From positions 12,860 through 76,859 of the forward strand of contig JAVBMN010000020.1 in the NCBI GenBank assembly GCA_031552405.1: a stretch of 64,000 nucleotides of DNA, in the 5' to 3' direction. The DNA is from Bacteroidaceae bacterium (GTDB lineage: Bacteria; Bacteroidota; Bacteroidia; Bacteroidales; Bacteroidaceae). The stretch's first letter is position 1. Each line of letters opens with the position of its first letter. The notes under the pieces are model-generated. The model searched no databases. It saw only the letters and a list, made by a program, of their open reading frames with translations, and was not told the DNA's origin. Made by a program: the position numbers and the translations under genes. Shown in pieces: positions 24,301 through 62,752 of this stretch.

Positions 24301-27300
24301 ATGAAAAGTAAATTATTTATGTTCATTATGGCTTTGACCATAAGCACCTGTCCCCCAACGGCACAGGCACAGAATGTGATTCCGTACTTACCGATGCAAA
24401 ACGATTTCGGTGGAACGGCAGTGGCTGACCTGGCAACTTTTGAGCCTTCGCTCAGTCAGTTCACTCTCGAAGTAACGGCAGATGCAACAGGTACGCCTGT
24501 AAGCATTGATATGCTGGGCATTACTTACACACCACAAATCTCCACGGATCTACGCTTCGTGCTCTACAAAGAGAAAGTGTACATTTACGAAGGTGACGAA
24601 TACAAAGAAACACAGATTCCATCCCTACAGATCTCTTACAGCGGAAGCAACCTTCTTCAGAATCCGGGCTTCGAAACGGTAGTATCACTGGGAAGCGTAT
24701 GGAAGGATGGGATATACTGGAATGCGTACACTGACACAAGAACGGAAGCATGGGGAGCCACTTCCTCCACTTCGATTCGTAATGGCTCATCGTACGGCAC
24801 TTACCGTATGTTAATGCACAATAACGCCCGTTATTTGACACAACAGCTGGCCACAGGCGAAGTAAAGCCAAACACCTATTACAAAGTAGCTTATCATTGG
24901 GCCGAAGCCGCAGGCGCTAACGATGGCGGATTGTACACCATAGAATTGGGCAGTACTCAGTTTGCAAGTGACTACCTTTCCATTCCGGCACATACCGTAA
25001 CCAATACAGAAAATGCATGGCGTGACTTTGAAACAACCTTCAAAACCGGATCAAATGTCGACATAAATAATCCCGTTTGGTTTACTCTGCACAGAAGCAA
25101 TTCAAAAATAGACTACCTTGACGATATTTCACTATTGGAAGGTACAGCCGCAGTAGGCATCACCGGCGCAGTTTCGGCACAGTATGCCGCTGAAGTAGTG
25201 GCTGCTCCGGAAATGACACCCAACTATGCCGCAGGTGATGCATTTGACATGTATCCTTACTATCTGGTCAATCCTAACTTTGATGTGGATTATTCGGGAT
25301 GGCAAAAAACCACGAACGGCACCATACAACGCGGAACCGGTATAAAGGCCGATGGTACGCTTTTACCTGCCGGAGACGGGAAATTACAGGTATGGGGAAT
25401 CACAAGCGCAGGAAATATTTATCAATCTCTTTCAGATCTTCCTAACGGGAAATACAAACTAAGGGCTGCTGTGTATGCCAGTCCGGTCACTCAGGATGGG
25501 CTTTACCTGTATGCCAATCAGCAACAAACGGTGATTACTGATGCGGTGGCAACCACCAATGCCTATATTGAAGTGGAGAATGCAATTGTGGTAGACGGGA
25601 ACCTGGAGTTTGGCTTGAAACTCACTGTTGCTCCAAGTGCCACTGCTGAAGTGGATTTGGACAAAGTTAGTCTGTTCTATTACGGTCCTGATCACTCTGC
25701 TCAGGCCGAAGCCATCCTGGCGCAGATTGCCTCTATTGAAACGTTGCTTGAAAGCCCGATGAATACCGCCATAAAAGCCGAGTTAACAGCTAAGAAGAAT
25801 GCAGCCTACAATGCAGCAACCGCCTCTCCGCTTGTTCCTTCTGACTTGGAAACAACCGCTACTGCATTGAGTAGTGTGATTACTACAGCTAATGCTTCCG
25901 CTGCAGCATACGTAATTCTGGACAATTTCCTCAACGGTGTTGAATCTGCATTAGACTCTTACAACAGTTATTCAGGTTACGCTACCTATGCCGCCATCGT
26001 TCTTACTGCAAGAACTGCTTACACCAATGGAACAACCGCTGATGCAGATATCCAAACTGCAATCCTCGCCCTCAAAGCAGCCAAAAACAACTGCAAGTAC
26101 TCAGACGGAGCAATCCATAACGACCCTAATCTGCTTTATGGATGGGATGCCCAAAAAGACGGCACAACTACCCCCGAAGAGGCAGGATGGATCGCCTCAC
26201 AGGATGATCTTATTTGGGGAGGACAGCTTTCGGGAGCTAATGAAGACAAAGATGCATTATACCGTACCAATTCTCTTGATAAATATGCTTTCTATGCCAA
26301 ATCCAGAAAGAACAATGAAGTGATTACATACGCATACCCAATCTACCTAGAAGCTGGCAAAACCTATTTCTTTGAAGGAAAGAACTGGCGTAGAAACGGG
26401 CAACAAGCCGCCGATGCAGCCCATGTCACATTTGCCGTTTCATCTACCCCTTCCAGTACAGGCACTATCTTGAACTCACAAACAATACTTTGCAATAAGG
26501 AAGGATACCTTGATTATTCCTTCTCTTTTGATGTGACCACCACAGGGGTTTATTACCTTGTCCGTTATGCGGAAGAACCTACATCAAGTAATTACCAGGA
26601 TGTATCTGCCGATTTATCCCTAGTTGAAGCCTATACACTTACCGACGGAGCAGCCACTGTGGTTGGTGAACTCACCCCATCCATCATCACAGAGCTTGGA
26701 GTTGCCGATATTATCTCTGTAGATCTTACCAATACCACTGCTTCCAATGCTGTAATACTAACCCTTAAAAATCCCAACACTTTAGTACACAATGCACCTG
26801 CCAATGTGACAACCAATGGGATTAAGGTATCTAACAATGAATTTGTAGACACCCCCAACTTGACTGACCTGCAACCTTTCTCAGCCACAGGCGATATTGC
26901 TGGTGCAATATCCTACCAACGTGCCTTCACCGGAGTAGCTAACGAAACTGACGGAGCAACTGGAGGATGGGAAGTATTCAACGTGCCGTTTAAGGTAACC
27001 AGCGTAAAAGCCACCATCGATGGTAAAGAGTACGAATACCTGCCTTATACAGAGTGGAAGGCCACGGATGATGCAACGGTAGAAGGTTGTGGATTCTTCT
27101 GGATTAAGAAGGCCACAGAGGGTAGCAATGCTATCAGCAGCAGTGTAGAGAGTCTTGAGGATATGACTGCGAATGAACCGTATCTTATCGCATTTCCCAG
27201 AATATCTATTGAAGGACGTCCACAGTTTAATGTAAATGGTGAAACCTTCACTTTTAGCGGCGAAAACGGTGTAGAGGCAACTATTAATCTTCAGCCCGCA

Positions 27301-27717
27301 GAAGCAGGTAACTTCAGCTTCAACCAAAGCTATCTGGAAGGTACTATGCAGAATGTGTATCTGCTGAATGCTGCCGGTGATGCATTTGTAAAAGAGGCAG
27401 AGGCAACAATCGTTCCTTTCCGTCCTTTTGTGACATTTGATAATCCAATAGGTGCAGCTCCTTCGCAGTTCCTTATCAATGGCAATAATGATGTGACTAA
27501 TATAGAAGAAGTGAAGGCTCGCCTTGCTGCTGCCAAGATGATTATTACTGTAGCTGAGAACGGAGTAACTATCTACTCGGAAAATGAAGGCACGGTATTG
27601 GTATATGACCTGAACGGTGCATTAGTGAAGAGCATAGCTATCAGCAATGGTGAGAACTTCATATCTCTCCCGAGCGGTGCATACGTCATCCACAATAAGA
27701 CAGTTATCGTAAAATAA
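24301..27717 (+). CDS. Secreted modular protein A1; no catalytic domain recognised
   Basis: Signal peptide ending AQAQ. N-terminal IPYLPMQNDFGG domain, NPGFE and NPNFD CBM4/9-like modules, and alanine-rich helical repeats. About 330 aa of the C-terminal region are shared with A2. The tail VLVYDLNGALVKSIAISNGENFISLPSGAYVIHNKTVIVK resembles the type A T9SS sorting domain. Confidence 0.75.
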   Translation: MKSKLFMFIMALTISTCPPTAQAQNVIPYLPMQNDFGGTAVADLATFEPSLSQFTLEVTADATGTPVSIDMLGITYTPQISTDLRFVLYKEKVYIYEGDEYKETQIPSLQISYSGSNLLQNPGFETVVSLGSVWKDGIYWNAYTDTRTEAWGATSSTSIRNGSSYGTYRMLMHNNARYLTQQLATGEVKPNTYYKVAYHWAEAAGANDGGLYTIELGSTQFASDYLSIPAHTVTNTENAWRDFETTFKTGSNVDINNPVWFTLHRSNSKIDYLDDISLLEGTAAVGITGAVSAQYAAEVVAAPEMTPNYAAGDAFDMYPYYLVNPNFDVDYSGWQKTTNGTIQRGTGIKADGTLLPAGDGKLQVWGITSAGNIYQSLSDLPNGKYKLRAAVYASPVTQDGLYLYANQQQTVITDAVATTNAYIEVENAIVVDGNLEFGLKLTVAPSATAEVDLDKVSLFYYGPDHSAQAEAILAQIASIETLLESPMNTAIKAELTAKKNAAYNAATASPLVPSDLETTATALSSVITTANASAAAYVILDNFLNGVESALDSYNSYSGYATYAAIVLTARTAYTNGTTADADIQTAILALKAAKNNCKYSDGAIHNDPNLLYGWDAQKDGTTTPEEAGWIASQDDLIWGGQLSGANEDKDALYRTNSLDKYAFYAKSRKNNEVITYAYPIYLEAGKTYFFEGKNWRRNGQQAADAAHVTFAVSSTPSSTGTILNSQTILCNKEGYLDYSFSFDVTTTGVYYLVRYAEEPTSSNYQDVSADLSLVEAYTLTDGAATVVGELTPSIITELGVADIISVDLTNTTASNAVILTLKNPNTLVHNAPANVTTNGIKVSNNEFVDTPNLTDLQPFSATGDIAGAISYQRAFTGVANETDGATGGWEVFNVPFKVTSVKATIDGKEYEYLPYTEWKATDDATVEGCGFFWIKKATEGSNAISSSVESLEDMTANEPYLIAFPRISIEGRPQFNVNGETFTFSGENGVEATINLQPAEAGNFSFNQSYLEGTMQNVYLLNAAGDAFVKEAEATIVPFRPFVTFDNPIGAAPSQFLINGNNDVTNIEEVKARLAAAKMIITVAENGVTIYSENEGTVLVYDLNGALVKSIAISNGENFISLPSGAYVIHNKTVIVK

Positions 27718-27735
27718 CCCTTAATAACAAGTCTG

Positions 27736-27915
27736 ATGAAAACAAAGAAAGAATATAACCGGCCTCATATAGAGATTATTGAGCTGGAACTGGAAGAAAT
27801 AATGATCACAGCTTCGCAACTTAAAGAAAGCTTTGGAGATAAAAGTGGAGTAAACCTCCAGCAAACAAACTCTTTCTGGAACGAAAACAACATAATAAAA
27901 GGCGACGAAGAGTAG
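27736..27915 (+). CDS. Conserved small acidic protein (59 aa), unknown function
   Basis: Below the 60 aa track cutoff and found by hand: MKTKKEYNRPHIEIIELELEE... It starts 18 nt after the A1 stop. Its paralog at 49814..49996 sits in the same position behind A2 and differs by about 12 synonymous third-position changes. Confidence 0.6.
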   Translation: MKTKKEYNRPHIEIIELELEEIMITASQLKESFGDKSGVNLQQTNSFWNENNIIKGDEE

Positions 27916-27987: not shown

Positions 27988-28040
27988 AATTCATGAACTG
28001 CAAGCGGATAATTATAAAAACAATTCTAAAACGATTTGAA

Positions 28041-31000
28041 ATGAAGAAACTATTTTTGATTTATTCCCTGCTGACACTGATTGGCCTCATAGGCTTCAGT
28101 CCGGAGGTTATAGCACTGAATCATGCAAACCGAGTTTTCAACAGTTTTGAATCCTCTGCCAAGGCATCTGCTGTGGCCCCTCTTGCCGGGGAAAATAGCT
28201 TTTTGGCCCAAGAAGCAGCAGAAGATGGGAGTTTTCCTTTGGTGAAAGACGGAAAAGCTGCCATATTGGTAGTAGATGCAAAGGATGCGGAGGTCGTTTC
28301 CATTGTCGCTACGGCATTCAGCAAGGATGTAAAACTTATTACAGGAGTTACTCCTTCAGTATCGAACAAGTTGGAGGAAGGCACCTACCCTGTGATCATC
28401 GGTACGCTCGGAAAATCGGCGCTGATTGACCAACTGGCTTCGGAAGGGAAAATTGCTTCTGCACAAGTGAAAGGGAAATGGGAGACCTTCTGCCTGTCGG
28501 TAATTGAAAATCCTTTTGAAGGAGTGGATAAAGCGTTGGTAATCTTCGGAAGCGACCCAAGGGGAACGGCTTTTGGAGTCTTCGAGTTATCCAGGCAAAT
28601 CGGGGTTTCTCCCTGGGTGTGGTGGGCAGACGTGCTGCCAGAAGAACGTAGTACTATATATATACCTGCGGGAGAAGACATTATCGGGCCCCCGTCTGTG
28701 AAGTACAGAGGGCTGTTCATTAATGACGAAGACTGGGGACTCCAACCCTGGGCTGCAAAAAAAATGGATACAGATATCAAAGACATTGGCCCCAAGACGT
28801 ATGAAAAGGTGTTTGAATTGATGCTACGCCTGAAAGCCAATTATATGTGGCCGGCCATGCATCCTTGCACAAAAGCCTTTTGGTACTACCCCGGAAACCC
28901 GGAGATGGCCCGTAAATACCATATTGTATTGGGCGCCACCCATTGCGAACCGCTACTGAGGAACAATGTGGACGAGTGGGTCAATAATTTCCAGAGCGAA
29001 TATGGGACCGCCTCAGGCGACTGGAACTGGGCGACAAACAGTACTAAAATCACAACATACTGGACCGACCGGGTGATCCAGTCCAAGGGACAGGATGCCG
29101 TCTACACCATCGGTATGCGCGGTATTCACGACAGCGATATGCCGGGCTACTCCGGTAATGAGGCCAAAAAGAATGGGCTGAGAAGTGTCATTGCAGCCCA
29201 GCGCACTATTCTGGAAACCCATCTTGAAAAACCCGCTTCGCAAGTACCTCAGATCTTCTGCCCCTACAAAGAAGTGCTGGATTTATACAAATTGGGGCTT
29301 GACCTGCCCGATGATATTACCATCACATGGGCTGATGATAACCATGGCTACATCCGCCAGCTCTCCAATCCACAGGAACAGTTGCGAAGCGGAGGAGCAG
29401 GCGTATACTACCATTTGTCATATTGGGGCGCTCCCGAAGATTACCTGTGGCTCTCTTCCATTTCTCCTTCTCTGATCAGTTATGAGATGAGCAAAGCATA
29501 CGCTCTGAACACGCGGAATTTGTGGGTATTTAATGCGGGAGACATCAAACCCGCCGAGCTGGAATTGCAGTTTGCAATGGATCTTGCCTGGGATATAACC
29601 GCCTGGAGCCCGGAGAAAGCACACACCTACAGCACCCACTGGGCCACAGAAACCTTTGGAAAAGAACTGGGTGAGAGCATTGGAAAGATCAAGCAGGAAT
29701 ACTACCATTTGGCAGCTTTGGGTAAACCGGAACATCTGCATCTGATTGAATACACTGAGGAAGAAATCGATCAGCGCTTGGCTGATTATGCTAAACTTGT
29801 GGCCGAATCCAGAAGTGTGGAAGGACAAGTTCCCTCGCGTCTGAAGGATGCCTACTACGAATTGGTTGCCTACCCGCTTGAGGCTGCAGCCTCCATGAAT
29901 GAAAAAATACTGTATGCAAAAAGAAGCCTCCAACTAGCTGCGCAAGGGAACCGTAATGCTCTGGACTATGCTGCTAAGGCAAAAACTGCCTATCAGAGTA
30001 TCATTACCCTGACGAATAAATACAACCAGGAGATTGCTTCCGGGAAATGGAATGGCATTATGAGTTATGCCCCACGTGGCCGTTCCCAATTCTCTGCCCC
30101 TACTGTAGCCACCGAAAGCTCTATCGCTGAACATGGTGTCCCCGCAGAAGAGAAAGGAAACGTAACTTCTTTTACCGCCGATGACTTTACGCTGAAGCAC
30201 GAAGCCGGATACACCCTTCACTCAATTAAGGAACTGGGGGCTTCTACAGGATCCGTGACGGTTTGGCCGTTGAATATGACCACTTATAATGAATCCAACA
30301 TTACCTCTGCACCCTACGTGGAATACAATGTGGAAGTATCCAAGGGAACCTCTCTCCTTATCGTAAAATGCCTCCCTACGTTCCCCTTGTATGAGGAAAT
30401 GAAACTGCGTTATGCAATCTCTGTGGACGGTTCTATACCCGAGTTTGTGAATATTGCTACCTCCGCGGAATCAAGTGCATGGACCAAGAATGTTATTGCA
30501 GGCTATGCAAGCGGGTCAAGTGCCTACAAAAGCGATTCGGACAAGGAAATCAAGGTACGCATCTATTTTACGGATCCGGGATTGGTACTGAGCGCTCTGG
30601 ACGTAAAGAAAGAGATAACAAGTCCTTATACGGAGTTGATCACCAACCCAAGCTTCGAATACGTAGCAGCAGGAAAGTTATATGAAGGTACGGTTGCAAG
30701 AGGCACCCCCTACGGTTGGCAGCAAACCGGCCAGGTAGTTGGGAACTCCTACGGTATCAGCAACGATGCTACAGAATATGATGAAAATGCCATCTGCTGG
30801 TACAACGCCAACCAGTCTCCCTATGCCATGCCGGAAGAATTTGAGCTGTATCAGATCATCCGTGGATTAGAGCCTGGGGAATATGTGGTTCGTTGCCGTC
30901 TGGCAGTAATGACGGGCTATGAAACTAATGTGCGTCTATTTGCCAATAACTTCGTGCAATATTATGGAAGCGCCTCGAAGTACGTCGACAACCTGACGAT

Positions 31001-31478
31001 AAGCGAGATCAAAAGCTTTGCAGGATTAACAGGAGTTTCAGGTATGACTAAGGCTGCCTTGAGAGAAATGGCGGTAAAAGTGACCCTTCAGGAAGGGGAT
31101 TCATTGAAGCTGGGTATCCGCTCCAGTAACCTAAAAAGCGATGGAACAAAGGGAAGCGGCCCTGACGCCTCCCATGCATACGGCGGATTCAAGGTGGATC
31201 ATTTCCGGTTGGAAGCAGTAAATCCCGTGGGACTAAAACCTCTTGCTACGGAGGAAGCAGGCATTCGGATCACCGGGTCAGAGGATGGAATCGAAATCAC
31301 CATAGAGCAACTCCATATACACGGATACGCCAAACTCTATTCTTTATCAGGTAATCTCATACTGAAACGTATCCTTACAACGGGTATGAATTCTATTTCC
31401 ATTGCCCAGAAAGGAGTGTACCTGGTACAGACTGTAGTAGATGGGCGAGAACACACTAAAAAGATACGAATCGAATAG
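28041..31478 (+). CDS. GH115 alpha-glucuronidase-like enzyme with C-terminal CBM4/9-like module and T9SS-type sorting domain
   Basis: GPPSVKYRGLFINDEDWGLQPWA...KANYMWPAMH is characteristic of GH115. Late in the protein come an NPSFE module and the tail AKLYSLSGNLILKRIL...GVYLVQTVVDGREHTKKIRIE. Start trimmed to MKKLFLIY (signal peptide). Confidence 0.8.
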   Translation: MKKLFLIYSLLTLIGLIGFSPEVIALNHANRVFNSFESSAKASAVAPLAGENSFLAQEAAEDGSFPLVKDGKAAILVVDAKDAEVVSIVATAFSKDVKLITGVTPSVSNKLEEGTYPVIIGTLGKSALIDQLASEGKIASAQVKGKWETFCLSVIENPFEGVDKALVIFGSDPRGTAFGVFELSRQIGVSPWVWWADVLPEERSTIYIPAGEDIIGPPSVKYRGLFINDEDWGLQPWAAKKMDTDIKDIGPKTYEKVFELMLRLKANYMWPAMHPCTKAFWYYPGNPEMARKYHIVLGATHCEPLLRNNVDEWVNNFQSEYGTASGDWNWATNSTKITTYWTDRVIQSKGQDAVYTIGMRGIHDSDMPGYSGNEAKKNGLRSVIAAQRTILETHLEKPASQVPQIFCPYKEVLDLYKLGLDLPDDITITWADDNHGYIRQLSNPQEQLRSGGAGVYYHLSYWGAPEDYLWLSSISPSLISYEMSKAYALNTRNLWVFNAGDIKPAELELQFAMDLAWDITAWSPEKAHTYSTHWATETFGKELGESIGKIKQEYYHLAALGKPEHLHLIEYTEEEIDQRLADYAKLVAESRSVEGQVPSRLKDAYYELVAYPLEAAASMNEKILYAKRSLQLAAQGNRNALDYAAKAKTAYQSIITLTNKYNQEIASGKWNGIMSYAPRGRSQFSAPTVATESSIAEHGVPAEEKGNVTSFTADDFTLKHEAGYTLHSIKELGASTGSVTVWPLNMTTYNESNITSAPYVEYNVEVSKGTSLLIVKCLPTFPLYEEMKLRYAISVDGSIPEFVNIATSAESSAWTKNVIAGYASGSSAYKSDSDKEIKVRIYFTDPGLVLSALDVKKEITSPYTELITNPSFEYVAAGKLYEGTVARGTPYGWQQTGQVVGNSYGISNDATEYDENAICWYNANQSPYAMPEEFELYQIIRGLEPGEYVVRCRLAVMTGYETNVRLFANNFVQYYGSASKYVDNLTISEIKSFAGLTGVSGMTKAALREMAVKVTLQEGDSLKLGIRSSNLKSDGTKGSGPDASHAYGGFKVDHFRLEAVNPVGLKPLATEEAGIRITGSEDGIEITIEQLHIHGYAKLYSLSGNLILKRILTTGMNSISIAQKGVYLVQTVVDGREHTKKIRIE

Positions 31479-34922: not shown

Positions 34923-34959
34923 ATGCTTTAAGAATATAAGTATCATTTAGAAAGAAGTT

Positions 34960-38138: not shown

Positions 38139-38160
38139 GGTTATAACATTTAAAACTCTA

Positions 38161-38168
38161 CAAAGGTA
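38161..38168 (-). promoter_or_regulatory. -7 box (TACCTTTG) for B2
   Basis: Minus-strand TAnnTTTG, about 23 nt upstream of ATG 38138. Confidence 0.55.
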
Positions 38169-38252
38169 TGGCAAGACAGGATAAGAAACAGGACTCTCTC
38201 CCTTCAGAGAAAGACGTTACGGCATCAAAGTGCCTATTTCCTGTATAAACCG

Positions 38253-38746
38253 CAGGTTTGTGGGCTCAGCGGCTTTTCCCGGTGGATGTTTTCCCCTTAG
38301 CTCTGAAAGAGCGTCCTACCTAAGCCTGGGGTCAATGAGCAAAGCGAATGCAGCCCCAGGAACAAACCGCCGTAAGGAATGAGTTCTGTAAGAACGATAT
38401 ACAAGCTCCACAAACTATCATTCTATTGAAAAGAAATAGAACACAATGTAGTGGCACAATTATTATCACAATTATAGGTGCATCGCATCTTTTCTGCGAG
38501 AAGGGGTTCGGTATAATGAGGGCTATACGAGACGGATTGATTGTATATCGTTCTTACAGAACTCATGCGCCTGGCGATGCTTTAAACCTGGGGCTGCATT
38601 CGCTTTGCTCATTGACCCCAGGCTTAGGTAGGACGCTCTTTCAGAGCTAAGGGGAAAGAATATGATCTACCTCTGCCGGTATGATCATATTTTTGATATG
38701 CGGGGAAACATCCACCGGGAAAAGCCGCTGAGTCGGTTTGTGCCTG
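38253..38746. repeat. Nested inverted-repeat element (MITE-like or large RNA/DNA hairpin)
   Basis: 38297..38360 is a perfect reverse complement of 38587..38650 (64/64 by eye). Outer arms 38265..38296 and 38702..38732 match apart from one indel. Inner arms 38376..38404 and 38541..38569 match over 26 bp. The loop is 136 bp. Confidence 0.8.
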
Positions 38747-49813: not shown

Positions 49814-49996
49814 ATGAAAACAAAGAAAGAATATAATCGCCCTCAGATAGAGGTTATTGAACTAGTGCTCGAAGAAACAATAGTTACCGCCTCTAGTGTG
49901 AAGTCGCAATTTTCGGCTGACAAAGAGGGAGTAGGACTCCAAGAAACCAATTCCTTCTGGAATAAAAACAACTTTCTGGATCGAAGTGATGAATAA
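49814..49996 (+). CDS. Conserved small acidic protein (60 aa), paralog of 27736..27915
   Basis: MKTKKEYNRPQIEVIELVLEE... It starts 19 nt after the A2 stop. See the paralog entry for the synonymous-change argument. Confidence 0.6.
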   Translation: MKTKKEYNRPQIEVIELVLEETIVTASSVKSQFSADKEGVGLQETNSFWNKNNFLDRSDE

Positions 49997-50167: not shown

Positions 50168-50256
50168 CAAGTTGCAGTGCCCTATTCACAGGCACTTTGA
50201 TTCCATAGCATCCTTTTTTGACGGTGGAGCATTCCCCCTTTCATCTCCTCCCGCTC

Positions 50257-53302: not shown

Positions 53303-53351
53303 TATGCCATCCCATACAAGGCCATTTAACCACATTAAACCACTTTATTTT

Positions 53352-54737
53352 ATGAAATATTGGATATTACTTTGCAGCATTCTCATTTGTACAGGAAGCC
53401 AAGCTAAATCAGGTTCTACTACAAACAAGACCGTTTACAACGGTATTCCCTGGTTTGATGACCGGGGCAATATAGTAAATGCCCACGGAGCATGTATCGT
53501 AGAGGACAACGGGCGATACTACCTGTTTGGCGAATGGAAATCGGACAAGAGCAATGCCTTTCCGGGATTCAGTTGCTATTCCTCCGATGACCTGGTACAC
53601 TGGAAGTTTGAGAATGTAGTGCTCCCACTCCAGACCGACGGGCTGCTGGGCCCCAACCGGGTGGGCGAACGCGTCAAAGTAATGAAATGCCCCTCCACTG
53701 GGGAATATGTGATGTACATGCACACAGATGATATGGGATACATGGATCCGCACATTGGCTATGCCACCTGTAAAACCATTGCAGGCAATTACGAATTCCA
53801 AGGGCCGCTGTTGCATCAGGGCAAACCTATCAACCGTTGGGATATGGGTACATTCCAGGATAATGACGGAACCGGTTATCTGCTGATTCATCACGGCATT
53901 ATCTACCGGCTTAGCAAAGACTACCGTTCTGCCGAGGCCAAAGTAATTGACCACATGCCCGGCTCAGGTGAATCGCCTGCCATGTTTAGGAAGAACGGGC
54001 TGTATTACCTGCTTTACTCCGCTCTCACCAGTTGGGAGAAGAATGATAACTTCTACTTCACAGCACCCAAGATAGAAGGCCCCTGGACGCGCCAAGGGCT
54101 GTTTGCCCCTGAAGGCTCGCTAACCTACAACTCGCAGACTACTTTTGTGCTCCCGTTGGTGCGTGACAATGATACGATCCCCATGTTTATGGGCGACCGC
54201 TGGTCGTACCCCCACCAAGCCTCAGCCGCTACGTATGTATGGCTACCCATACAAGTGGAGGGAACAAAATTATCCATCCCCGAATACTGGGAATGCTGGG
54301 ATCTCAATCAGGCAAAGCAAGTAACCCCTCTGAAGGGCGCAACCGCTATCCCGGCCAAACAGATAAAGCCCAATAACTCGGCAGACTGGAAAGCTGAGAA
54401 CAATCAGCTAACCTGCAATACACAGGGAAGTTTTCTGGAGATCCCTTTCAAAGGCACCCAAATCGCATTCACCGGTGAAACCAATTCTAAGAGCGGATAC
54501 GCCAGAGTGGTTATCATTAACAAAGACCAAAAGGAGGTACATTCTTCTTTGGTAGACTTCTATAGCAAAGAGCCCAATCATGCAGTTCGCTTTATCAGCC
54601 CCCGCCTTACAGAAGGCACCTACACGCTGAAGATTGAAGTAACCGGTATCTCACCCGTATGGACGGATAAAAGCAAAGCACGCTACGGAAGCACGGATTG
54701 CTTTGTAACTATACACAAGGCGTTTCACTTCCTCTAA
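53352..54737 (+). CDS. GH43 enzyme (same propeller type as B1/B2) with C-terminal beta-sandwich; probable lipoprotein or periplasmic enzyme, no T9SS tail
   Basis: NAHGACIVEDNGRYYLFGE, SSDDLVHWKF, DMGTFQDNDGTGYLL and GESPAMFRKNGLYYLLYS parallel the B1/B2 catalytic blocks. Start trimmed to MKYWILLCSILICTGS, with a -7 box at 53295..53302. Confidence 0.75.
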   Translation: MKYWILLCSILICTGSQAKSGSTTNKTVYNGIPWFDDRGNIVNAHGACIVEDNGRYYLFGEWKSDKSNAFPGFSCYSSDDLVHWKFENVVLPLQTDGLLGPNRVGERVKVMKCPSTGEYVMYMHTDDMGYMDPHIGYATCKTIAGNYEFQGPLLHQGKPINRWDMGTFQDNDGTGYLLIHHGIIYRLSKDYRSAEAKVIDHMPGSGESPAMFRKNGLYYLLYSALTSWEKNDNFYFTAPKIEGPWTRQGLFAPEGSLTYNSQTTFVLPLVRDNDTIPMFMGDRWSYPHQASAATYVWLPIQVEGTKLSIPEYWECWDLNQAKQVTPLKGATAIPAKQIKPNNSADWKAENNQLTCNTQGSFLEIPFKGTQIAFTGETNSKSGYARVVIINKDQKEVHSSLVDFYSKEPNHAVRFISPRLTEGTYTLKIEVTGISPVWTDKSKARYGSTDCFVTIHKAFHFL

Positions 54738-54767: not shown

Positions 54768-56405
54768 ATGAAGAAATATAAAATCTTATTCCTTTGTATC
54801 CTATTAAGCGTACAACTGCTGCAAAGCAAAATTGTAGTGTTTACCATCGGCGACTCCACAATGGCAAACAGAAGCAGCGGAGACTCTGAACGAGGATGGG
54901 GTATGCTATTACCCCAATTCGTGACGGATGAGGTACAAGTATCAAACCATGCCATCAACGGATACAGCACCAAAAGCTTTATTGATGATAAGAAATGGAG
55001 CGCCGTAGTAAACTCCTTGCAGCCCGGTAACTTCGTACTGATACAATTTGGCCACAATGACGCCAAAGCAGACGCGCCGCTCCATACGGATCCGGCCACT
55101 ACCTACAAGGCAAACCTCACGAAGTTTGTAAATGAATCGCGTGCCAAAGGAGCTATTCCAGTCTTATTAACATCTATTGTGCGCCGTAGCTTTGACACGT
55201 ATGGTAATGTGACAAATACACACGGTGAGTACCCAGAAGCTGTAAGAGAACTGGCCATCGAATTAAATGTTCCGATGATCGATATGGAACTGAAGACCCG
55301 CCTATTGGAAAACATTGCCGGGCTGACAGGCTCTCGCAGCATCCACCAATGGAGCCCGGGATCAGAGATTGACAACACGCATCTCTGCAACTACGGTGCA
55401 TACGTGGTAGCACGACTGGTAGCAGATGGTATACGCGAACTACACATCCAGATCCCACTGAAGGCTACTCCTACCGCATTGGCCAATGCCGAAGCAAACA
55501 CGCTGGAACTGGCCTACCGCATGTTAAACACCCAGATCCAAACCGCCCAAGCCACACTTCAGAGCCTGACAACGGCCACTGGAAAAGTCGATTTTCAAAA
55601 GGCCATAACGGAAGTGAAAGGAAAGACACAGGGAAAACAGTATGCTACCCTCAGTGAAATGGACGCAGATATACGGGCACTCCGCAGTGCAGAACTCGCA
55701 TTTAAGTGGACACAAGCCACTCCCTTCAACGCCACTTTCGCCATCGGCAATCCAGGTATGGAAGAGGGGGTAATATGGGATATCACCAATAACTCGGTCA
55801 TGGCCATGTCGTGGACACTGGATGCCACCTTTGCAGGGACCAAAGACATTGCACTGAAAACCGTGGCAAGCGAAGGATATTACCGGTTCTATGCCTGGGG
55901 CGATGCCGGTTCTTCTATCGACTTTTTCCAAGACCTAGTGTTATCGGCAGGGAAATATACACTGAAAGCCGATTTAAAGCCCAATGTCACCAATACGGCT
56001 GTTCTTTATGCAAAAATGAAGGATGAAACCCTTCAGGGAAACGCCCTTGGCTCCTGGAGTTCATGGGGAACTACACAAATAACCCTCACCATTACAGAAG
56101 ATCACACCCCTGTACGTATAGGTGTCAACTCCTCGCGGGCGATAATGATTGACAACTTCCAGTTGATAAAGAACGAAGCCATAGCCTCTTCGCTAGAAAA
56201 GCCGGAGCAGCATTCTTTCAGCATCCTAAACTGTAAAGGAGGTATAGTCATCAGCGGAGACGATGCGCCGCAATCTACTCTTGCCATCCATACGCTTGAA
56301 GGACAACTAATCAAAACCGTACAGGTAACAACTATTCCACTTTTTATTCCATTGTCAAGAGGGATCTATATTATCAATAATCAGAAAATAGCGATTGAAT
56401 CCTAA
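54768..56405 (+). CDS. SGNH/CE12-like (rhamnogalacturonan acetylesterase-like) esterase with NPSFE-type module and T9SS-type tail
   Basis: SGNH blocks are present: FTIGDSTMAN, NHAINGYSTKSF, LIQFGHNDA and DNTHLCNYGA. The C-terminal module and the tail (LAIHTLEGQLIKTVQV...GIYIINNQKIAIES) match those of protein D. Confidence 0.75.
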   Translation: MKKYKILFLCILLSVQLLQSKIVVFTIGDSTMANRSSGDSERGWGMLLPQFVTDEVQVSNHAINGYSTKSFIDDKKWSAVVNSLQPGNFVLIQFGHNDAKADAPLHTDPATTYKANLTKFVNESRAKGAIPVLLTSIVRRSFDTYGNVTNTHGEYPEAVRELAIELNVPMIDMELKTRLLENIAGLTGSRSIHQWSPGSEIDNTHLCNYGAYVVARLVADGIRELHIQIPLKATPTALANAEANTLELAYRMLNTQIQTAQATLQSLTTATGKVDFQKAITEVKGKTQGKQYATLSEMDADIRALRSAELAFKWTQATPFNATFAIGNPGMEEGVIWDITNNSVMAMSWTLDATFAGTKDIALKTVASEGYYRFYAWGDAGSSIDFFQDLVLSAGKYTLKADLKPNVTNTAVLYAKMKDETLQGNALGSWSSWGTTQITLTITEDHTPVRIGVNSSRAIMIDNFQLIKNEAIASSLEKPEQHSFSILNCKGGIVISGDDAPQSTLAIHTLEGQLIKTVQVTTIPLFIPLSRGIYIINNQKIAIES

Positions 56406-56443: not shown

Positions 56444-59400
56444 ATGAAAAAGAAACTCTTATCCCTTGTACTCTGCCTTATGGCATGTATGAGTATCACC
56501 CATGCACAGACGGGCATCCCCTACCTCCCTTTAAAGGGTCAATTCGGAGGGGCGCAGGTCAATGACCTCACTAATTTTGTGCCCAGTCTGGGCGATTACA
56601 CGCTGGAACTACAGGGCACAAAAGGCACTGAGATCCGGATTGCATTCGCAGGTATCAGTTATACTCCGGCAGAAACGTCTACCGTACGTTTCACCCAAAA
56701 AGAGGGGAAAGTATATGTGTTTGAGAATGGGCTGTTCAAGACTATTCTTACCCCCGATTCGAAATACGCCACAAGCGGGGACAATATTATTCAGAACCCC
56801 GGCTTCGAACAAGTAGAAGCAGAACTGCTGGCCACCGGCCGCTGGAAACCCACCATTTGGGATACCTGGAACGGAGGCATGCCTACCTGGGGAGGTGACA
56901 CCGGGAAAACCAACGTACGCGAAGATGCTGCCTATCGCTCAGAAGGCACAAAGTCTATCATTATGCACAGCGACTCGCGCCAGTTGCTGCAGGAGCTGCC
57001 GCAGAACTCACTGGAAGCCGGTGCACATTACCTACTTGCGTATGACTACTGGACCTCAGCCGGAAGCGGAAATGGGGGTATCACCTATCAGATCATGCTC
57101 CGGAAGGATAAGTATTCGAATGAATTTCAAACGTTTTCAGGCCATACCACCCTCGAATCGGGCACTGCAAAGACCTCCTTCTCCACCCTCTTCCAAGTGG
57201 CGGCAGATGTACCGGAAAGTGTGTGGTTCGTACTCCAGCGCAATGAAGACAAGGTAGACTGGCTGGACAACTTCAAACTATACAAGATCATACCCGAAAA
57301 CAAAGGAATCACCGGAGCAACCTCCGTGGCATATCTTTCCGGTGCGGCATATGCTCCGGGCAACCTAAGTTTTGAAAACGGAGATTATATCGACATGACC
57401 GGCCGCATTACAAATCCGGGCTTTGACAATAACACTACCGGATGGACCCTTGAAGCAAACGGTTCTAAGATCAGTACCGCAGAAAAAGCCGGCGGACTGA
57501 TCCCCGCTGGCCAAAACCACCTCCAGTTCTGGGTAGGAAGCGGTGGCGTCACAGGTAAAATGTACCAAACCCTCACCGGTCTACCCAATGGGAAATACAC
57601 CGTAAAGGCAGCTATCGCTCCAGCATTCAGCGGCACCGCCTCTCTTTATGCCAACTCGGGCAAGACAGCTGTTGTCTCAGGAACATCCAAACAGTATGAA
57701 GTACACGGAATCGTATTTGACGGTACACTGGAAATGGGTCTGGAAATGGCCACATCCGGAAGCCCTACGATTGATATTGACGATTTCAAACTCTTCTACT
57801 TAGGAATAGAGGCCGAAGGTTACTTGCAAGTACTACAGGCCAAGATTACAGAGGCCAAAGCAGATACCACCGCCATGCACACCGCCACCGGACGTCCCGG
57901 TTACCACAACCTGCCCCAGTACCGCCTGGCATTGGAAAAGGCTGTTAACCGACCTGACGATGAAGCGGCTACACTGACAGAGGCCCTGGCTACACTGAAC
58001 GAGGCCATTACGGAATATGAGGCCATCCTTGAGGCATACACCCCGCTGAAAGAAGCCATAGACAAGCTAAAAGTCCAACTGACCGCTTCAGGCTATCCGG
58101 TCAAAACCTCTTTTGAGAGTGTCCTCGCAGCCGCACAGGCAGTGTATGACAGCCCGAACGATCAACGCGCCCATATTGCAGCAAGCATCCAGACAATAGC
58201 TGAGAAAGAAGCAACCCTTACCACCTACAAGGACCTGAAAACGGCCATCGCAAGTGCCACCGCGATACTAAACAGTACCTCCTATGCAGGGAAAGCAGCC
58301 TTCCAGACGGCCATCCAGGCAGCTCAGGCGGTAACCGAGAATCCCGAAGGGAAGGATCTGAGTGTCGCCATTGCCGCCTTAAGCACTGCGCAGACAGCCT
58401 ATCACAACTCCCAGTACACCAACCCGGCCGTTCAGCAGACGGTATCCAGCGTAGACACCAGTCTGAAAGGGTCTGATAAGTTTGTACTCAGAGTGGATGG
58501 GAAGCCCTTCTACATGACCAATATACAGGTACGTCTCGACAAGCTGTATGGTTATGAAGGCTGGAACGATGCCGCCCTGGAAGCGGTGGTAAAACGTGCG
58601 GCAGAAGACGGTTTCAACACCCTGTCCATCCCCATTCACTGGCGCGAGGTAGAACCGGTGAAAGACCAGTTCAACTGGACCATCCTGGACAAGTTCATGG
58701 GCTGGTGCAAGAAGTATGACGTAAAGATGGAAATGCTGTGGTTCAGCTGGAGCAGTGGCGGACGGGTGCAATACCTGATGAACACTGGCGAAAAGCAAAC
58801 CCTCCGCACCCCTGATTATGTATGTTCACTATCCGGAACCAGCGAATTCAACATGTTGCGCAAAGAATGGGAATACTCCTTAGACTGGCGGGATACCAAT
58901 CTGCGCAACCGCGAGAAATATGTAATGGGACAGATCATGGAGCACATCGCCGTATGGGATGCCAACAACGGCAATCCGCACACCGTGGTAGGCGCCCAGC
59001 TGGGTAACGAGGCACGCAATCATGGAGACAATTCAGCCACCGCTGCCGAGATTATAGAGTACTACCACCATATAGGCGCCGGGATAAAGGAGTCGAAATA
59101 TGTGATCTGGACCCGCCTCAACTGCGTAAGCTGGGAAACCCCCGGACGCATCAGCGCCAACGAAGCCAAGCGCAACAGCAGTACCGGTACCAATATCGAC
59201 TTTGTAGGCATTGACATCTACGGAACAAGTGCTTCAAGCATCCTGGGAAATATGGGCGGCCAGTTGCCTCATACAGGTAAAAATTATTCCATGATTATGG
59301 AAATCGATGCCAAAGACTCCAACTCCCCCATCTACCAGATGGCAGCGCTTGCCGGAAACAAGGCTTTCGATTATTACAACATGGCTGTGGTTGACGGTAA

Positions 59401-60511
59401 TAACCTATACACCAACAGCGGAACCACCCTGACGGAACGCAGCCACATCACCCTCGTGCGCCAACGTAACAAGATACTGAACCTAGCCAACCAGGATGTA
59501 GCCCTCCGGGCACAAGGAAAAAACCTGTATGTGTACAACTACGCCGGTAACTCCACTGTAGGCGAGAACGGCCTTGAAGACATTCGTTTCGTACCCAATG
59601 CCCCCCAGACACAGGCTGTGGCCATCCGTCGCAGCGAATCGGAAATCGTACTCCTCTCCACCATGACCGGTACATTCACCTTCCCTGCCAAATTTGAGAT
59701 CGTCTCAGCCTCGAAAGGATACTTTGACAAAGACAACAAATGGGTGAACGAAGGTGCAGTAACGCTTAGCGGAAATACCCTGACCATGCCTGCCACCTCC
59801 GCCGTACTGGTAAAGCTGAAGACCACCGAAGAGCCCATTACCGGCGTGATCAAAAACCCCAGTTTTGAGGAAACGATTTATAACAACGGAACATACACCG
59901 TACCCAAAGACTGGACTCTGCAAGGAACCATCAATGGCCCCGATGTACAGTTGAAAACCGGAGATGCCGTGGACGGTGAGAAACGCTACTACATCTGGGC
60001 CACCTCCGGCAGCTCCATCGATTTGTATCAGGACATCGTGTTGCCCGCAGGCGATTATACCGTGAAAGCCTCCCTGAAGGCCAACGCCCCCGCCTCTACC
60101 TATGTATATGCCACAGTAGGCGGCAACACGATCCGTACAGCCACCTCGGCCAGTTGGAGCCTATGGAGAAGCACCGCCGCATCATTCAAAGTATCGGCGG
60201 ATAACACCACCGTACGCATCGGAGTTACAGCCAGCGAGGCAGTGATGATCGACCATTTCCTGTTGTACAAGAAAACTGAAGGTGCGGACGTATCCGCACC
60301 CTCAGTAGCCGAAGACCGTCCGGAGCTGCAACTCATCAACTGCGAAGGAGGAATACTCATTAGCAGCAACAACCCCGAGCTACTGTCCGTGCACATCCAT
60401 TCCATCGCCGGCCAATACATAAAGACCATAAGTCTAAGCAACGAGCCGGTCTTTGTATCCCTGCCAAAAGGAGCGTATGCAGTGGGCGCACAAACAGCGC
60501 TTGTAAATTAG
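56444..60511 (+). CDS. Secreted modular protein D with a clan GH-A (beta/alpha)8 hydrolase-like domain
   Basis: GIPYLPLKGQFGG N-domain, NPGFE, NPGFDNN...NHLQFW and NPSFE-type CBM-like modules, and helical repeats. The TIM-barrel-like blocks are IPIHWREVEPVKDQFNW, LGNEARNHG and IMEIDAKD. The tail is SVHIHSIAGQYIKTISL...GAYAVGAQTALVN. Confidence 0.7.
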   Translation: MKKKLLSLVLCLMACMSITHAQTGIPYLPLKGQFGGAQVNDLTNFVPSLGDYTLELQGTKGTEIRIAFAGISYTPAETSTVRFTQKEGKVYVFENGLFKTILTPDSKYATSGDNIIQNPGFEQVEAELLATGRWKPTIWDTWNGGMPTWGGDTGKTNVREDAAYRSEGTKSIIMHSDSRQLLQELPQNSLEAGAHYLLAYDYWTSAGSGNGGITYQIMLRKDKYSNEFQTFSGHTTLESGTAKTSFSTLFQVAADVPESVWFVLQRNEDKVDWLDNFKLYKIIPENKGITGATSVAYLSGAAYAPGNLSFENGDYIDMTGRITNPGFDNNTTGWTLEANGSKISTAEKAGGLIPAGQNHLQFWVGSGGVTGKMYQTLTGLPNGKYTVKAAIAPAFSGTASLYANSGKTAVVSGTSKQYEVHGIVFDGTLEMGLEMATSGSPTIDIDDFKLFYLGIEAEGYLQVLQAKITEAKADTTAMHTATGRPGYHNLPQYRLALEKAVNRPDDEAATLTEALATLNEAITEYEAILEAYTPLKEAIDKLKVQLTASGYPVKTSFESVLAAAQAVYDSPNDQRAHIAASIQTIAEKEATLTTYKDLKTAIASATAILNSTSYAGKAAFQTAIQAAQAVTENPEGKDLSVAIAALSTAQTAYHNSQYTNPAVQQTVSSVDTSLKGSDKFVLRVDGKPFYMTNIQVRLDKLYGYEGWNDAALEAVVKRAAEDGFNTLSIPIHWREVEPVKDQFNWTILDKFMGWCKKYDVKMEMLWFSWSSGGRVQYLMNTGEKQTLRTPDYVCSLSGTSEFNMLRKEWEYSLDWRDTNLRNREKYVMGQIMEHIAVWDANNGNPHTVVGAQLGNEARNHGDNSATAAEIIEYYHHIGAGIKESKYVIWTRLNCVSWETPGRISANEAKRNSSTGTNIDFVGIDIYGTSASSILGNMGGQLPHTGKNYSMIMEIDAKDSNSPIYQMAALAGNKAFDYYNMAVVDGNNLYTNSGTTLTERSHITLVRQRNKILNLANQDVALRAQGKNLYVYNYAGNSTVGENGLEDIRFVPNAPQTQAVAIRRSESEIVLLSTMTGTFTFPAKFEIVSASKGYFDKDNKWVNEGAVTLSGNTLTMPATSAVLVKLKTTEEPITGVIKNPSFEETIYNNGTYTVPKDWTLQGTINGPDVQLKTGDAVDGEKRYYIWATSGSSIDLYQDIVLPAGDYTVKASLKANAPASTYVYATVGGNTIRTATSASWSLWRSTAASFKVSADNTTVRIGVTASEAVMIDHFLLYKKTEGADVSAPSVAEDRPELQLINCEGGILISSNNPELLSVHIHSIAGQYIKTISLSNEPVFVSLPKGAYAVGAQTALVN

Positions 60512-61172: not shown

Positions 61173-61195
61173 AAAGATAAACAAATACCAAGTAT

Positions 61196-62752
61196 ATGAA
61201 TAGGAAATGGATACCCAAAATTGCCGCAATCGCTATAAGCCTCGCGGTTTCTCTGCCCAGTGAAACATGGGCACAACAAAAAACTCAGACAAGGAGTAAT
61301 GCAGACAAGGGGTATTATCAGAATCCCATCTTAGGCGGCGATTATCCCGACCCCACCATTGTAAGGGATGGCAATGACTATTACATGACCCATTCCGCCT
61401 TCAATTATTTGCCGGGGCTCACCCTCTTCCATTCAAAAGATCTGGTACACTGGAAGCCGGTCAGCATGGCCCTTACCCGATACTTAGGTTCTGTGTGGGC
61501 GCCTGACATCTGCAAATACAAAGGGAAATTCTATATTTACTTTACCGTATCGCAGGGCAATGACGATTTCAGCAACCATGTAGTGTATGCCGATTCTCCC
61601 CGGGGGCCCTGGAGCGAGCCCGTTAATCTGAATATAGGCAGTTGGATAGATCCCTGCCATGCCGTGGATGAAAGTACCGGGCAGCGCTGGCTGTTCCTCA
61701 GCGGAGGGCACCGCATCAGGCTGTCTGAAGACGGACTCTCTGCCGAAGGAAAGCTGGAAAAGGTATATGACGGGTGGCCCATTCCTAAGGACTGGACCAT
61801 AGAAGGCATGGCATTGGAAGGCCCGAAGATGAAAAAGATTGGCGATTATTATTACTTCCTGAACGCCCAGGGAGGAACCGCAGGCCCTCCTACTACCCAC
61901 ATGGCGGTGTTAGCCCGCTCCAAATCCATCAACGGCCCCTGGGAAAACAGCCCGGCCAACCCTTTGGTTCATACCTATAGCGGCACGGAACGCTGGTGGT
62001 CAAAGGGGCACGCCTCACTCATTGATACCCCTGACGGGCAATGGTGGGTGGTATATCACGCCTACGAAAAGGACTTTTTGACCCTGGGAAGGCAAACCCT
62101 CCTGGAACCTGTGCAGATCACCGAAGACGGTTGGTTAAAAGCCCCGTCAGGAAAAGAAACGGAAGGGATGATTCCCTGCCCCCTCCCCTCTGCCCGCAAG
62201 CAGCAACCAGGCGATAAGCTGAATGAGTTCCGCATCGGCTTCGACTGGAAATTTTATAAGCAGTATGATCCCGCACGTTTCACCCTGAAAGACGGCATAT
62301 TGACCCTGAAAGCCCAAGGTTCCAATCCGGCAGAATCCTCTCCCATGCTGTTTGTGACCGGTGCACATGGCTATGAAATGAGTGTAAAGATAGAATGTGA
62401 CAGCAATGCCGTGGCCGGACTTATACTCTACTACAATGACAACTTCTATGTAGGCACCGGCTGCGATCCCCAATACAGATACCGATGGCGAAGAGGCGCA
62501 CCGAAAGGAAGAACCCGGTACAGCAAGCCCGGCCCTATATGGCTAAAGCTTCGCAATGAAAATCACATCGTGACCGGTTATTACAGCTACGACGGCAAAG
62601 AATGGATCAAAGAAGGATGGGGCATGGAAATCTCCGGCTACCATCATAACACCCTTTCCGACTTTCAGAGCGTACTCCCCGGACTGTTCGTCTATGGAAA
62701 AGGAAAAGCTTGCTTTAAAGAGTTTCAATATAAATCCCTGAACTCTTTATGA
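61196..62752 (+). CDS. GH43 beta-xylosidase/alpha-L-arabinofuranosidase-type enzyme with C-terminal concanavalin-like domain
   Basis: Signal peptide. YQNPILGGDYPDPTIVRDGNDYYMTHS, VWAPDICKYKGKFYIYF and EGPKMKKIGDYYYF are classical GH43 blocks. No T9SS tail. Confidence 0.85.
   Translation: MNRKWIPKIAAIAISLAVSLPSETWAQQKTQTRSNADKGYYQNPILGGDYPDPTIVRDGNDYYMTHSAFNYLPGLTLFHSKDLVHWKPVSMALTRYLGSVWAPDICKYKGKFYIYFTVSQGNDDFSNHVVYADSPRGPWSEPVNLNIGSWIDPCHAVDESTGQRWLFLSGGHRIRLSEDGLSAEGKLEKVYDGWPIPKDWTIEGMALEGPKMKKIGDYYYFLNAQGGTAGPPTTHMAVLARSKSINGPWENSPANPLVHTYSGTERWWSKGHASLIDTPDGQWWVVYHAYEKDFLTLGRQTLLEPVQITEDGWLKAPSGKETEGMIPCPLPSARKQQPGDKLNEFRIGFDWKFYKQYDPARFTLKDGILTLKAQGSNPAESSPMLFVTGAHGYEMSVKIECDSNAVAGLILYYNDNFYVGTGCDPQYRYRWRRGAPKGRTRYSKPGPIWLKLRNENHIVTGYYSYDGKEWIKEGWGMEISGYHHNTLSDFQSVLPGLFVYGKGKACFKEFQYKSLNSL

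Follow-up and report, generated by a model that had tools for sequence, protein, structure and literature searches.

The locus described here is a glycan-degradation island at positions 24301–62752 of a 64,000-nucleotide stretch of contig JAVBMN010000020.1, from a Bacteroidaceae bacterium; the whole stretch is referred to as the window. The listing of open reading frames (ORFs) gave 12 large intact ORFs in the island, namely two tandem genes for hybrid two-component system (HTCS) regulators and ten genes for glycan-active or glycan-binding proteins. An initial annotation of the same DNA had described 12 genes flanking the HTCS pair; its coordinates and gene content were retained, and the count was corrected to ten genes around two. 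The left arm carries A1, a small ORF of 59 amino acids (aa) and a GH115 gene on the + strand, and B1 and B2 on the − strand, converging on GH115. HTCS1 and HTCS2 lie in tandem on the − strand at the center. The right arm diverges from HTCS2 and runs through A2, a 60-aa ORF, C, a 477-aa GH43, an SGNH esterase, a 1355-aa enzyme and a 518-aa GH43. Signal peptides were present and ORFs intact in all 12 genes, and three paralogue pairs were recognized (A1/A2, B1/B2 and HTCS1/HTCS2).

Enzymes were assigned with Pfam and PDB sequence searches, which upheld every catalytic call made initially (GH115, one type of GH43 in three proteins, a second GH43, a CE12-like esterase and a GH-A-type barrel; GH, glycoside hydrolase; CE, carbohydrate esterase). 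The GH115 gene (27993..31478, + strand; likely true start 28041) encodes a putative alpha-glucuronidase of the arabinogalactan type (PF15979, 2.9e-126), with a C-terminal region resembling carbohydrate-binding modules (CBMs) and a tail at 31251–31475. Ranked by E-value, its nearest PDB entry was BtGH115A (5by3, 4.7e-158), and xylan-type GH115s followed behind (4zmh, 1.1e-129; 4c90, 1e-106; 7pug, 7e-100). BtGH115A is described as the sole GH115 active on arabinogalactan and as inactive on xylan (PMC9063842).

B1 (31983..34946, − strand) has a GH43 propeller of exo-beta-1,3-galactanase type (3vsf, 3.4e-71; 6euf, 4.4e-52; 7bys, 9.6e-45), CBM-like modules, an F5/8-type-C (CBM32-like) module, an Ig-like module and a tail at 31986–32159. 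Its tandem paralogue B2 (35193..38174, − strand; tail 35196–35372) is 68% identical and has the same architecture; the likely true start is 38138, and P0271 is B2 read from its MKKK start. The 477-aa enzyme (53304..54737, + strand) has the same type of GH43 and no tail; its matches were 3nqh (1.2e-224), 5flw (1.5e-55) and 7bys, its likely true start is 53352, and the gene call in L082 is 461 aa. We take 3nqh to be a Bacteroides thetaiotaomicron protein. By PDB sequence similarity, solved exo-beta-1,3-galactanases (3vsf, 6euf/6eug, 7bys, 5flw) were the closest characterized group for all three proteins, and these structures presumably belong to subfamily GH43_24. That subfamily is reported to hold only exo-beta-1,3-galactanases acting on the backbone of arabinogalactan proteins (AGP) (PMC8406133).

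The SGNH/CE12-like esterase (54768..56405, + strand) resembles YxiM (2o14) and a rhamnogalacturonan acetylesterase (1deo), and carries a DUF5013-like module and a tail at 56205–56402. The 1355-aa enzyme (56444..60511, + strand), called D initially, combines an N-terminal domain shared with other island proteins (N-domain, see below), CBM-like modules, a GH35/GH42-like barrel with DUF4978, a DUF5013-like module and a tail at 60314–60508. The 518-aa protein (61196..62752, + strand) is a GH43 with a GH43_C2 domain, of the arabinofuranosidase/xylosidase type (PF04616, 6.3e-86; nearest PDB entries 6ms3, 1yrz and BoGH43A/B). It lacks a sorting tail and is therefore probably periplasmic; both tail-less GH43 enzymes carry leaders and are presumably periplasmic.

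Type II arabinogalactan/AGP is very probably the substrate, because the GH43 trio matches exo-beta-1,3-galactanases, the GH115 is nearest to BtGH115A and a GH35-like barrel is present. This enzyme set fits arabinogalactan far better than glucuronoxylan or pectin; all three had been proposed initially, and the latter two were rejected as main substrates. Arabinogalactan is typically not acetylated, so the assignment offers no explanation for the esterase, which weighs against it.

Three large proteins of the island are of a different kind. A1 (24301..27717, + strand; 1138 aa) and its paralogue A2 (47344..49794, + strand; 816 aa) are putative surface glycan-binding proteins (SGBPs). A1 consists of a signal peptide, the N-domain, CBM-like jelly rolls, a helical insert, a pre-tail domain and a tail at 27529–27714; the A2 tail lies at 49606–49791. 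The two are 80% identical over the C-terminal 360 aa, and the duplication spans flanking DNA and the small downstream ORF. The small conserved ORFs, directly after A1 (59 aa; 27736..27915, + strand) and directly after A2 (60 aa; 49814..49996, + strand), are themselves paralogous (MKTKKEYNRPxIExIEL...; DNA repeat D13, 81% identical). C (50373..53177, + strand; 934 aa) has the N-domain, repeated CBM-like modules, helical linkers, DUF5013 and a tail at 52986–53174. Apart from DUF5013 in C, zero Pfam or PDB sequence matches were obtained for A1, A2 and C, and the A1 family is rare (28 matches at E <= 1e-5 in 5.8 billion proteins, several with PF18962 tails). An AlphaFold (AF2) model of A2 (mean predicted local distance difference test score, pLDDT, 75.6) is a string of beta-sandwiches. 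Foldseek matched it to CBM22 tandems, CBM4, CBM16, CBM61, CBM-like domains of Vip3 and SGBP-B of B. thetaiotaomicron, and no catalytic fold was among the matches. The description of A1, A2 and C as proteins of binding-type modules only was thus borne out.

Modules were heavily shared across the island proteins in an all-against-all comparison. The N-domain is a beta-rich stretch of ~80 aa (IPYLP..FGG..TLEV..YTP..RF..GKVYVYEG..YK) found right after the signal peptide in A1 (24379–24621, residues 27–107), A2, C and the 1355-aa enzyme, and was modeled in A2 at pLDDT >90. Jelly-roll modules starting with NP(S/G)FE recur in A1, A2, C, B1, B2 and the 1355-aa enzyme, and a DUF5013-like module stands just before the tail in C, the esterase and the 1355-aa enzyme. 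Pfam and NCBIfam scans gave no significant family for the N-domain, the pre-tail domain, the A1 insert or the small ORFs. Elsewhere, the A1-family homologues P0003, P0004 and P0019 are stand-alone genes, and no SusC/SusD and no HTCS was found near them among called genes or with tblastn. A1-family genes in L085 and L088 also precede a small ORF (91–94 aa), which is unrelated in sequence and has a signal peptide and, at its C-terminus, a hydrophobic anchor.

Eight island proteins (A1, A2, C, B1, B2, GH115, the 1355-aa enzyme and the esterase) end in a tail, and both tail types described here were confined to these eight within the window. All eight tails had been assigned initially to the type A sorting domain of the secretion system of type IX (T9SS). 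Three flavors were distinguished. The GH115 tail is the most canonical and ends GVYLVQTVVDGREHTKKIRIE. The A-type tail, on A1, A2, C, the esterase and the 1355-aa enzyme, is ~60 aa long and shorter than canonical T9SS C-terminal domains (CTDs). The B-type tail, on B1 and B2, is ~45 aa long and consists of YYNLQG, 6–8 residues and GxYIVKK..S.K.

In leave-one-out searches the five A-type tails were mutually homologous (49–55 bits), and the GH115 tail was related weakly (13 bits). A profile of these six tails, aligned with the tails of homologues that carry PF18962, gave an hhalign probability of 93.9% (E 1.6e-7). The A1 tail was modeled by AF2 as seven strands (pLDDT 92.4), and the best PDB matches of the model were CTDs of T9SS cargo (Foldseek, 350,542 chains): the CTD of RemA within the T9SS translocon (8gl6_D, TMq 0.70) and that of RgpB (7pq4, 5ag8). 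Profile and predicted fold together support the six tails as divergent type A sorting domains, homologous to T9SS CTDs. The initial assignment is thus supported in part, for six tails; B1 and B2 carry a different, shorter tail.

When N-termini were read by eye, all eight tailed proteins had a hydrophobic leader with an A-x-A-like site, in several followed by Gln, as for signal peptidase I, and a canonical lipobox was found in none of them. A lipoprotein signal is the usual route to the surface in Bacteroides. The six proteins with GH115-type or A-type tails are likely T9SS cargo, a prediction for which leaders and tails are the basis. As for the wider claim that the large proteins are T9SS cargo, most fit by leader and CTD-like tail; the B1/B2 tail showed no significant T9SS link.

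Several results weigh against this assignment. None of the eight tails reached the curated cut-offs of the CTD models (TIGR04183, 23 bits; PF18962, 27 bits), a check that the initial annotation had itself named, and by that measure the outcome counts against type A. With TIGR04183, the scores were 17.7 bits for A1, 19.0 for GH115, 17.9 for A2 and 11.6 for the CE12-like esterase, all at the extreme C-terminus; C, B1 and B2 had no match at E <= 1, and the 1355-aa enzyme had none at E <= 0.1. PF18962 gave only 15.9 and 17.1 bits, the latter for GH115. The Foldseek E-values of the A1 tail were weak (0.01–0.04), and small beta-sandwiches are common. Domain scans of the ORFs found no T9SS component genes in the 64-kb window. 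To our knowledge, the best-studied Bacteroides and Phocaeicola species have no T9SS, and Phocaeicola and Bacteroides are the nearest named relatives of the host, which is a real risk for the predicted export.

The sub-threshold scores and the nearest named relatives would also be expected if the tails were not secretion signals at all, but generic Ig-like beta-sandwiches or relics of horizontal acquisition in a T9SS-less relative of Bacteroides, with the proteins staying periplasmic or leaving in vesicles. An IS200-type element marks the edge of the island, which also contains repeats that are REP-like (REP, repetitive extragenic palindromic) and MITE-like (MITE, miniature inverted-repeat transposable element), which fits that account; and if 3nqh (1.2e-224) is indeed from B. 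thetaiotaomicron, gene content is held in common with T9SS-less Bacteroides. It is nevertheless improbable, since a tail stands exactly at the end of each of eight unrelated passengers, a canonical lipoprotein signal is missing from all of them, bona fide PF18962 tails occur in related proteins and the best structural matches are T9SS CTDs. The five A-type tails, moreover, remain mutually recognizable at the bit scores given above despite sharing just 24–34% identity, which argues for selection.

The B-type tail was examined separately. A profile of it matched 893 representative proteins at E <= 1e-3, nearly always at the extreme C-terminus and in proteins of surface type, and the carriers include BspA-type leucine-rich-repeat, LamG, InlB-repeat and SusE/F-like proteins, some from the termite-gut symbiont Ca. 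Symbiothrix. Among 46 B-type-tail relatives, PF18962 matched none, TIGR04183 one weakly, and the T9SS type C model four weakly (best 8.5e-4). Comparison with type A tails by hhalign gave probabilities of 3–18% (best P = 0.0013, not significant), and the B1/B2 tail had no significant match to the A-type profile or to PF18962-positive tails. The alignment of the B-type and type A profiles pairs the YNLQG, GxY and K positions across a deletion of ~14 residues. Passengers also switch tails, as B1 and B2 are B-type and the B-like enzyme of the sister locus L092 (see below) is A-type, and A1 and A2 are A-type and their homologues P0003 and P0004 B-type. Homologous passengers with either tail give indirect support for an equivalence of the two.

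The two HTCS genes encode the putative regulators of the island. HTCS1 (38751..42782, − strand) and HTCS2 (42819..46877, − strand; 37 bp upstream of HTCS1) each contain the Reg_prop/Y_Y_Y sensor, HisKA, HATPase_c, a receiver (REC) and an AraC-type helix-turn-helix (HTH), all above cut-off, and the tandem pair named initially was confirmed as complete in both members. By domain, the two are 35% identical in the propellers, 77% in REC and 84% in HTH_AraC. Because the AraC-type output domains are nearly the same, the two probably share operators, and the pattern as a whole suggests two inputs converging on the same DNA sites. The last 300 nt of the two genes are 84% identical as DNA, which suggests gene conversion or the constraint of a common operator. 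HTCS1 has many homologues at 55–63% identity across Bacteroidota, with orthologues beside SusC/SusD; HTCS2 was just 41–44% identical to the three HTCS1 orthologues examined (in loci L089, L091 and L092).

A shared promoter element, TTTGAnnCC-N6-TCnTTnTnTGAnGG, was located upstream of B2 (38201..38229, − strand), A2 (46998..47026, + strand) and C (50196..50224, + strand). It is made of two TTTGAnG-like half-sites 21 bp apart, and ends ~25–32 nt before a Bacteroides-type TAnnTTTG -7 box. The element is a candidate HTCS operator, with three sites in the window against 0.02 expected. Two observations weigh against that function: the pattern was derived from those same three sites, and upstream of susC in the sister loci, L091 showed just a loose match and L089 and L092 none. 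The element was likewise missing upstream of A1, GH115 and the 518-aa GH43. Transfer of an operator between loci was considered and rejected, as the window element is not kept in the sister loci and the motif of L089 and L092 is not in the window. That motif, CATGACnAATTTGTCC, is shared by the susC promoters of L089 (9700–9800) and L092 (4400–4470), and a second ATTTGTCC lies 21 bp downstream of it in L092; it is a candidate operator for the HTCS group of these two loci. Scans for sigma-70 promoters and terminators gave counts close to those expected from shuffled sequence, which say little for Bacteroidales, and an Rfam scan of the island gave zero matches.

No SusC or SusD was found beside these regulators. 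Plug, TonB_dep_Rec, CarboxypepD_reg and SusD domains were absent by Pfam from every ORF of >=400 aa in the 64-kb window, which is part of a 107-kb contig, and tblastn with two SusC and two SusD queries (from L089 and L091) found no remnant there (best E = 0.98). The initial observation that neither a TonB-dependent receptor nor a SusD is encoded accordingly holds for the window. Under a strict definition of a polysaccharide utilization locus (PUL), which asks for adjacent SusC and SusD, the window has no such pair; co-localized carbohydrate-active enzymes (CAZymes) with a dedicated regulator, the other part of the definition, are present (seven arabinogalactan-consistent CAZymes and two HTCS).

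Three related loci showed a different arrangement. In Bacteroides oleiciplenus (L089) and on contig L091, the HTCS1 orthologue adjoins SusC/SusD divergently, followed by GH43, GH2, GH51 or DUF4978-type genes. The third, L092 (metagenome contig OLSH01000194.1), was found by scanning metagenome contigs for the N-domain, and has the order HTCS, SusC (Plug, CarbopepD_reg), SusD, a 2743-aa ORF, the 518-aa GH43 orthologue and the 477-aa GH43 orthologue. Its HTCS is 58% identical to HTCS1, and its 518-aa GH43 orthologue is 75.5% identical. The 2743-aa ORF fuses an N-terminal half like the 1355-aa enzyme (62%, DUF4978) to a B-like half (49%, GH43 with F5/8C); the N-domain occurs in it twice, the second copy marking the fusion point, and its last parts are a pre-tail region like that of A1/A2 and a tail of the A-type (TIGR04183, 18.3 bits). 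The place beside the HTCS that SusC/SusD hold in L089, L091 and L092 is occupied in the island by A2, the small ORF and C. Since L092 has the same enzymes and a T9SS-type tail beside SusC/SusD, the T9SS cargo design coexists with SusC/SusD and is not a systemic replacement for it. None of 80 loci around relatives of the 518-aa GH43 contained the island in a synteny comparison.

Taken together, the balance of evidence favors an HTCS-controlled arabinogalactan locus with an extracellular layer of T9SS cargo, final steps in the periplasm and an importer encoded elsewhere. The export, co-regulation, substrate and import route that we infer would combine as follows. The tandem regulators would sense breakdown products in the periplasm with their diverged propellers and act on the element that the A2, B2 and C transcription units share upstream. 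The eight tailed proteins, with signal peptidase I leaders and sorting tails, would thereby be induced, and the two tail-less GH43 enzymes would complete degradation in the periplasm. Oligosaccharides would have to cross the outer membrane, as both periplasmic enzymes and periplasmic sensors are present, and would do so through a transporter outside the window, most likely a SusC/SusD or other TonB-dependent transporter elsewhere. That the importer is encoded elsewhere in the genome is itself somewhat better than an even proposition, because HTCS1 orthologues adjoin SusC/SusD and L092 keeps the pair.

An account that overlaps mostly with this explanation, and does not exclude it, takes the island for what is left, after rearrangement, of a canonical arabinogalactan PUL, from which duplications and mobile elements removed or relocated SusC/SusD, leaving an accessory enzyme bank for another PUL. 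It would explain the extensive paralogy, including duplicated upstream and downstream DNA, the REP-like arrays, palindromic element and IS200-type gene in or bounding the island, and the order with SusC/SusD in L092, which looks ancestral. It is unlikely, however, given that all 12 genes are intact with signal peptides, both regulators are complete and the shared promoter element is kept at three units.

Equally doubtful is a self-sufficient system independent of SusC/SusD, in which T9SS-anchored proteins (A1, A2 and C) take over the work of SusD and the SGBPs, and uptake follows a non-PUL route. Neither SusC/SusD nor a remnant was found in 64 kb, A2 and C take the position of the pair in the three sister loci, A2 is built of CBM-like modules and resembles SGBP-B, and PUL-less gut Bacteroidales are a precedent (PMC5831590). 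Against this stand the same enzymes beside SusC/SusD in L092, the retained periplasmic GH43 enzymes and HTCS sensors, which require oligosaccharide import, and the coverage of the negative result, 64 kb of a 107-kb contig; binding proteins, moreover, cannot stand in for a SusC transporter. A replacement of SusD/E/F by A1, A2 and C is speculation, for which the support is positional (A2 and C in the SusC/SusD slot). The boldest form, in which a PUL swapped its SusC/SusD-lipoprotein layer for T9SS-anchored A1, A2 and C with uptake without a locus-encoded SusC, and in which the B-type tail is an unmodeled class of sorting signal in at least 893 protein clusters, is likewise a long shot.

Repeats and mobile elements were recorded within and beside the island. 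A near-perfect palindromic, MITE-like element of ~470 nt (38265..38732) separates the B2 promoter from the HTCS1 stop codon and comprises inverted repeats I2, I11 and I12; its arms are complementary over 88 nt (91%), 31 nt (97%) and 26 nt (100%), as in a MITE or a long hairpin. Tandem arrays of a 22-nt REP-like unit (AACTGGTGCCCACCAATTGAAA-type) occupy two intergenic sites (31623–31748 and 61042–61166). At the right-hand boundary of the island, a gene for an IS200/REP-associated tyrosine transposase (63023–63478, − strand) sits in an element (62893..63663) with 134-nt inverted repeats on both sides (62893–63026 and 63530–63663, 98% complementary), and the REP-like arrays are plausibly related to it. 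A 43-nt element (a T-run, then CCGTGTACGATAACAG) occurs twice in the long 5' leader of A1 (24061–24103 and 24127–24169) and once in that of A2 (47173–47215), downstream of predicted -7 boxes; it may act in the leader or in attenuation, or may simply have come along with the duplication.

Left of the island, positions 1–23617 carry housekeeping and envelope genes, among them Tex, an UpxY antiterminator, a polysaccharide-biosynthesis cluster, RlmN, PdxA and an inositol-lipid cluster. The region 1115–15712 holds the UpxY-family antiterminator, several unrelated genes and then the polysaccharide-biosynthesis cluster (OEP-like, chain-length determinant-like, Wzy_C ligase/polymerase, glycosyltransferases GT2 and GT1, an acetyltransferase and a LruC-domain protein). 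This cluster is separate from the island, and surface glycan synthesis would be relevant only if the cargo were anchored to lipopolysaccharide. The Tex protein was 73% identical to Phocaeicola/Bacteroides proteins and 77–83% to proteins of metagenome-assembled genomes, its closest named relative being Phocaeicola. Judged by its sequence, the host is an uncultured member of the Bacteroidales related to Bacteroidaceae.

PULDB-style prediction needs SusC/SusD pairs and would overlook a complete regulated arabinogalactan locus such as this; estimates of how much glycan such uncultured Bacteroidales can degrade would then be too low. The island and L092 form a natural pair, with the same enzymes and regulator with and without SusC/SusD, which bears on substitution of the Sus-type layer by T9SS-anchored proteins. 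Three families lie outside current models (the A-type short CTD, the B-type mini tail and the IPYLP..FGG N-domain), and modeling them would improve surface-protein annotation in gut and termite-gut Bacteroidales.

Among known systems, L092 is like the island in its orthologous HTCS, the 1355-aa enzyme, B1/B2, both GH43 orthologues and the A-type tail. It differs in having SusC and SusD between HTCS and enzymes, in the fusion of the two large enzymes, and in lacking, over the 20 kb seen, both a second HTCS and any binding protein of the A2/C type. The AGP PULs of Bacteroides (B. thetaiotaomicron, Phocaeicola plebeius) follow the same GH43-rich enzyme logic with GH2/GH35-type galactosidases and arabinofuranosidases, and the arabinogalactan hallmarks, GH43_24 exo-beta-1,3-galactanases and a BtGH115A-type GH115, are common to them and the island. 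The PULs of L089 and L091 share with it an HTCS 59–61% identical to HTCS1. In both groups of PULs SusC/SusD stand next to the HTCS, whereas the island window has none, and nothing in those PULs corresponds to the multi-CBM proteins A1, A2 and C. Outward-facing proteins of the island carry CTD-like tails and signal peptidase I leaders in place of lipoprotein signals.

The chitin locus of Flavobacterium johnsoniae, which includes SusC/SusD where the island window does not, resembles the island in a T9SS-secreted multi-domain enzyme for a dedicated polysaccharide system, and L092 is like it in joining a T9SS-type enzyme and SusC/SusD in one locus. Use of chitin depends vitally on its enzyme ChiA, a T9SS-secreted protein with a CTD (summarized in PMC5831590). 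The ChiA signal is of the type C class, a model that a minority of B1/B2-type tails match, weakly.

The initial statement that this is not a standard described type of locus for gut Bacteroidales was overstated, as PUL-less rumen Bacteroidales with clusters of T9SS-CTD CAZymes had been reported in 2018 ('Ca. Paraporphyromonas polyenzymogenes', PMC5831590), and L092 places the same enzymes in a SusC/SusD PUL. Clusters of 'Ca. Paraporphyromonas polyenzymogenes' and Cytophaga hutchinsonii are like the island in their multi-modular T9SS-CTD CAZymes, operon-like organization, absence of SusC/SusD and unannotated flanking modules. They target cellulose and hemicellulose with CTDs that pass TIGR04183, whereas the island appears directed at arabinogalactan, with divergent tails and clear descent from a PUL lineage; the term 'hybrid two-component' is absent from the text of PMC5831590, and no HTCS control is reported there. 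Multi-modular T9SS CAZyme clusters in PUL-less gut Bacteroidales (PMC5831590) and T9SS enzymes for dedicated systems, such as ChiA, were thus already known. What appears new in the island is the targeting of arabinogalactan, the presence of two HTCS, a clear descent from a SusC/SusD PUL lineage whose pair is locally missing, the rare multi-CBM cargo and the unmodeled classes of tail.

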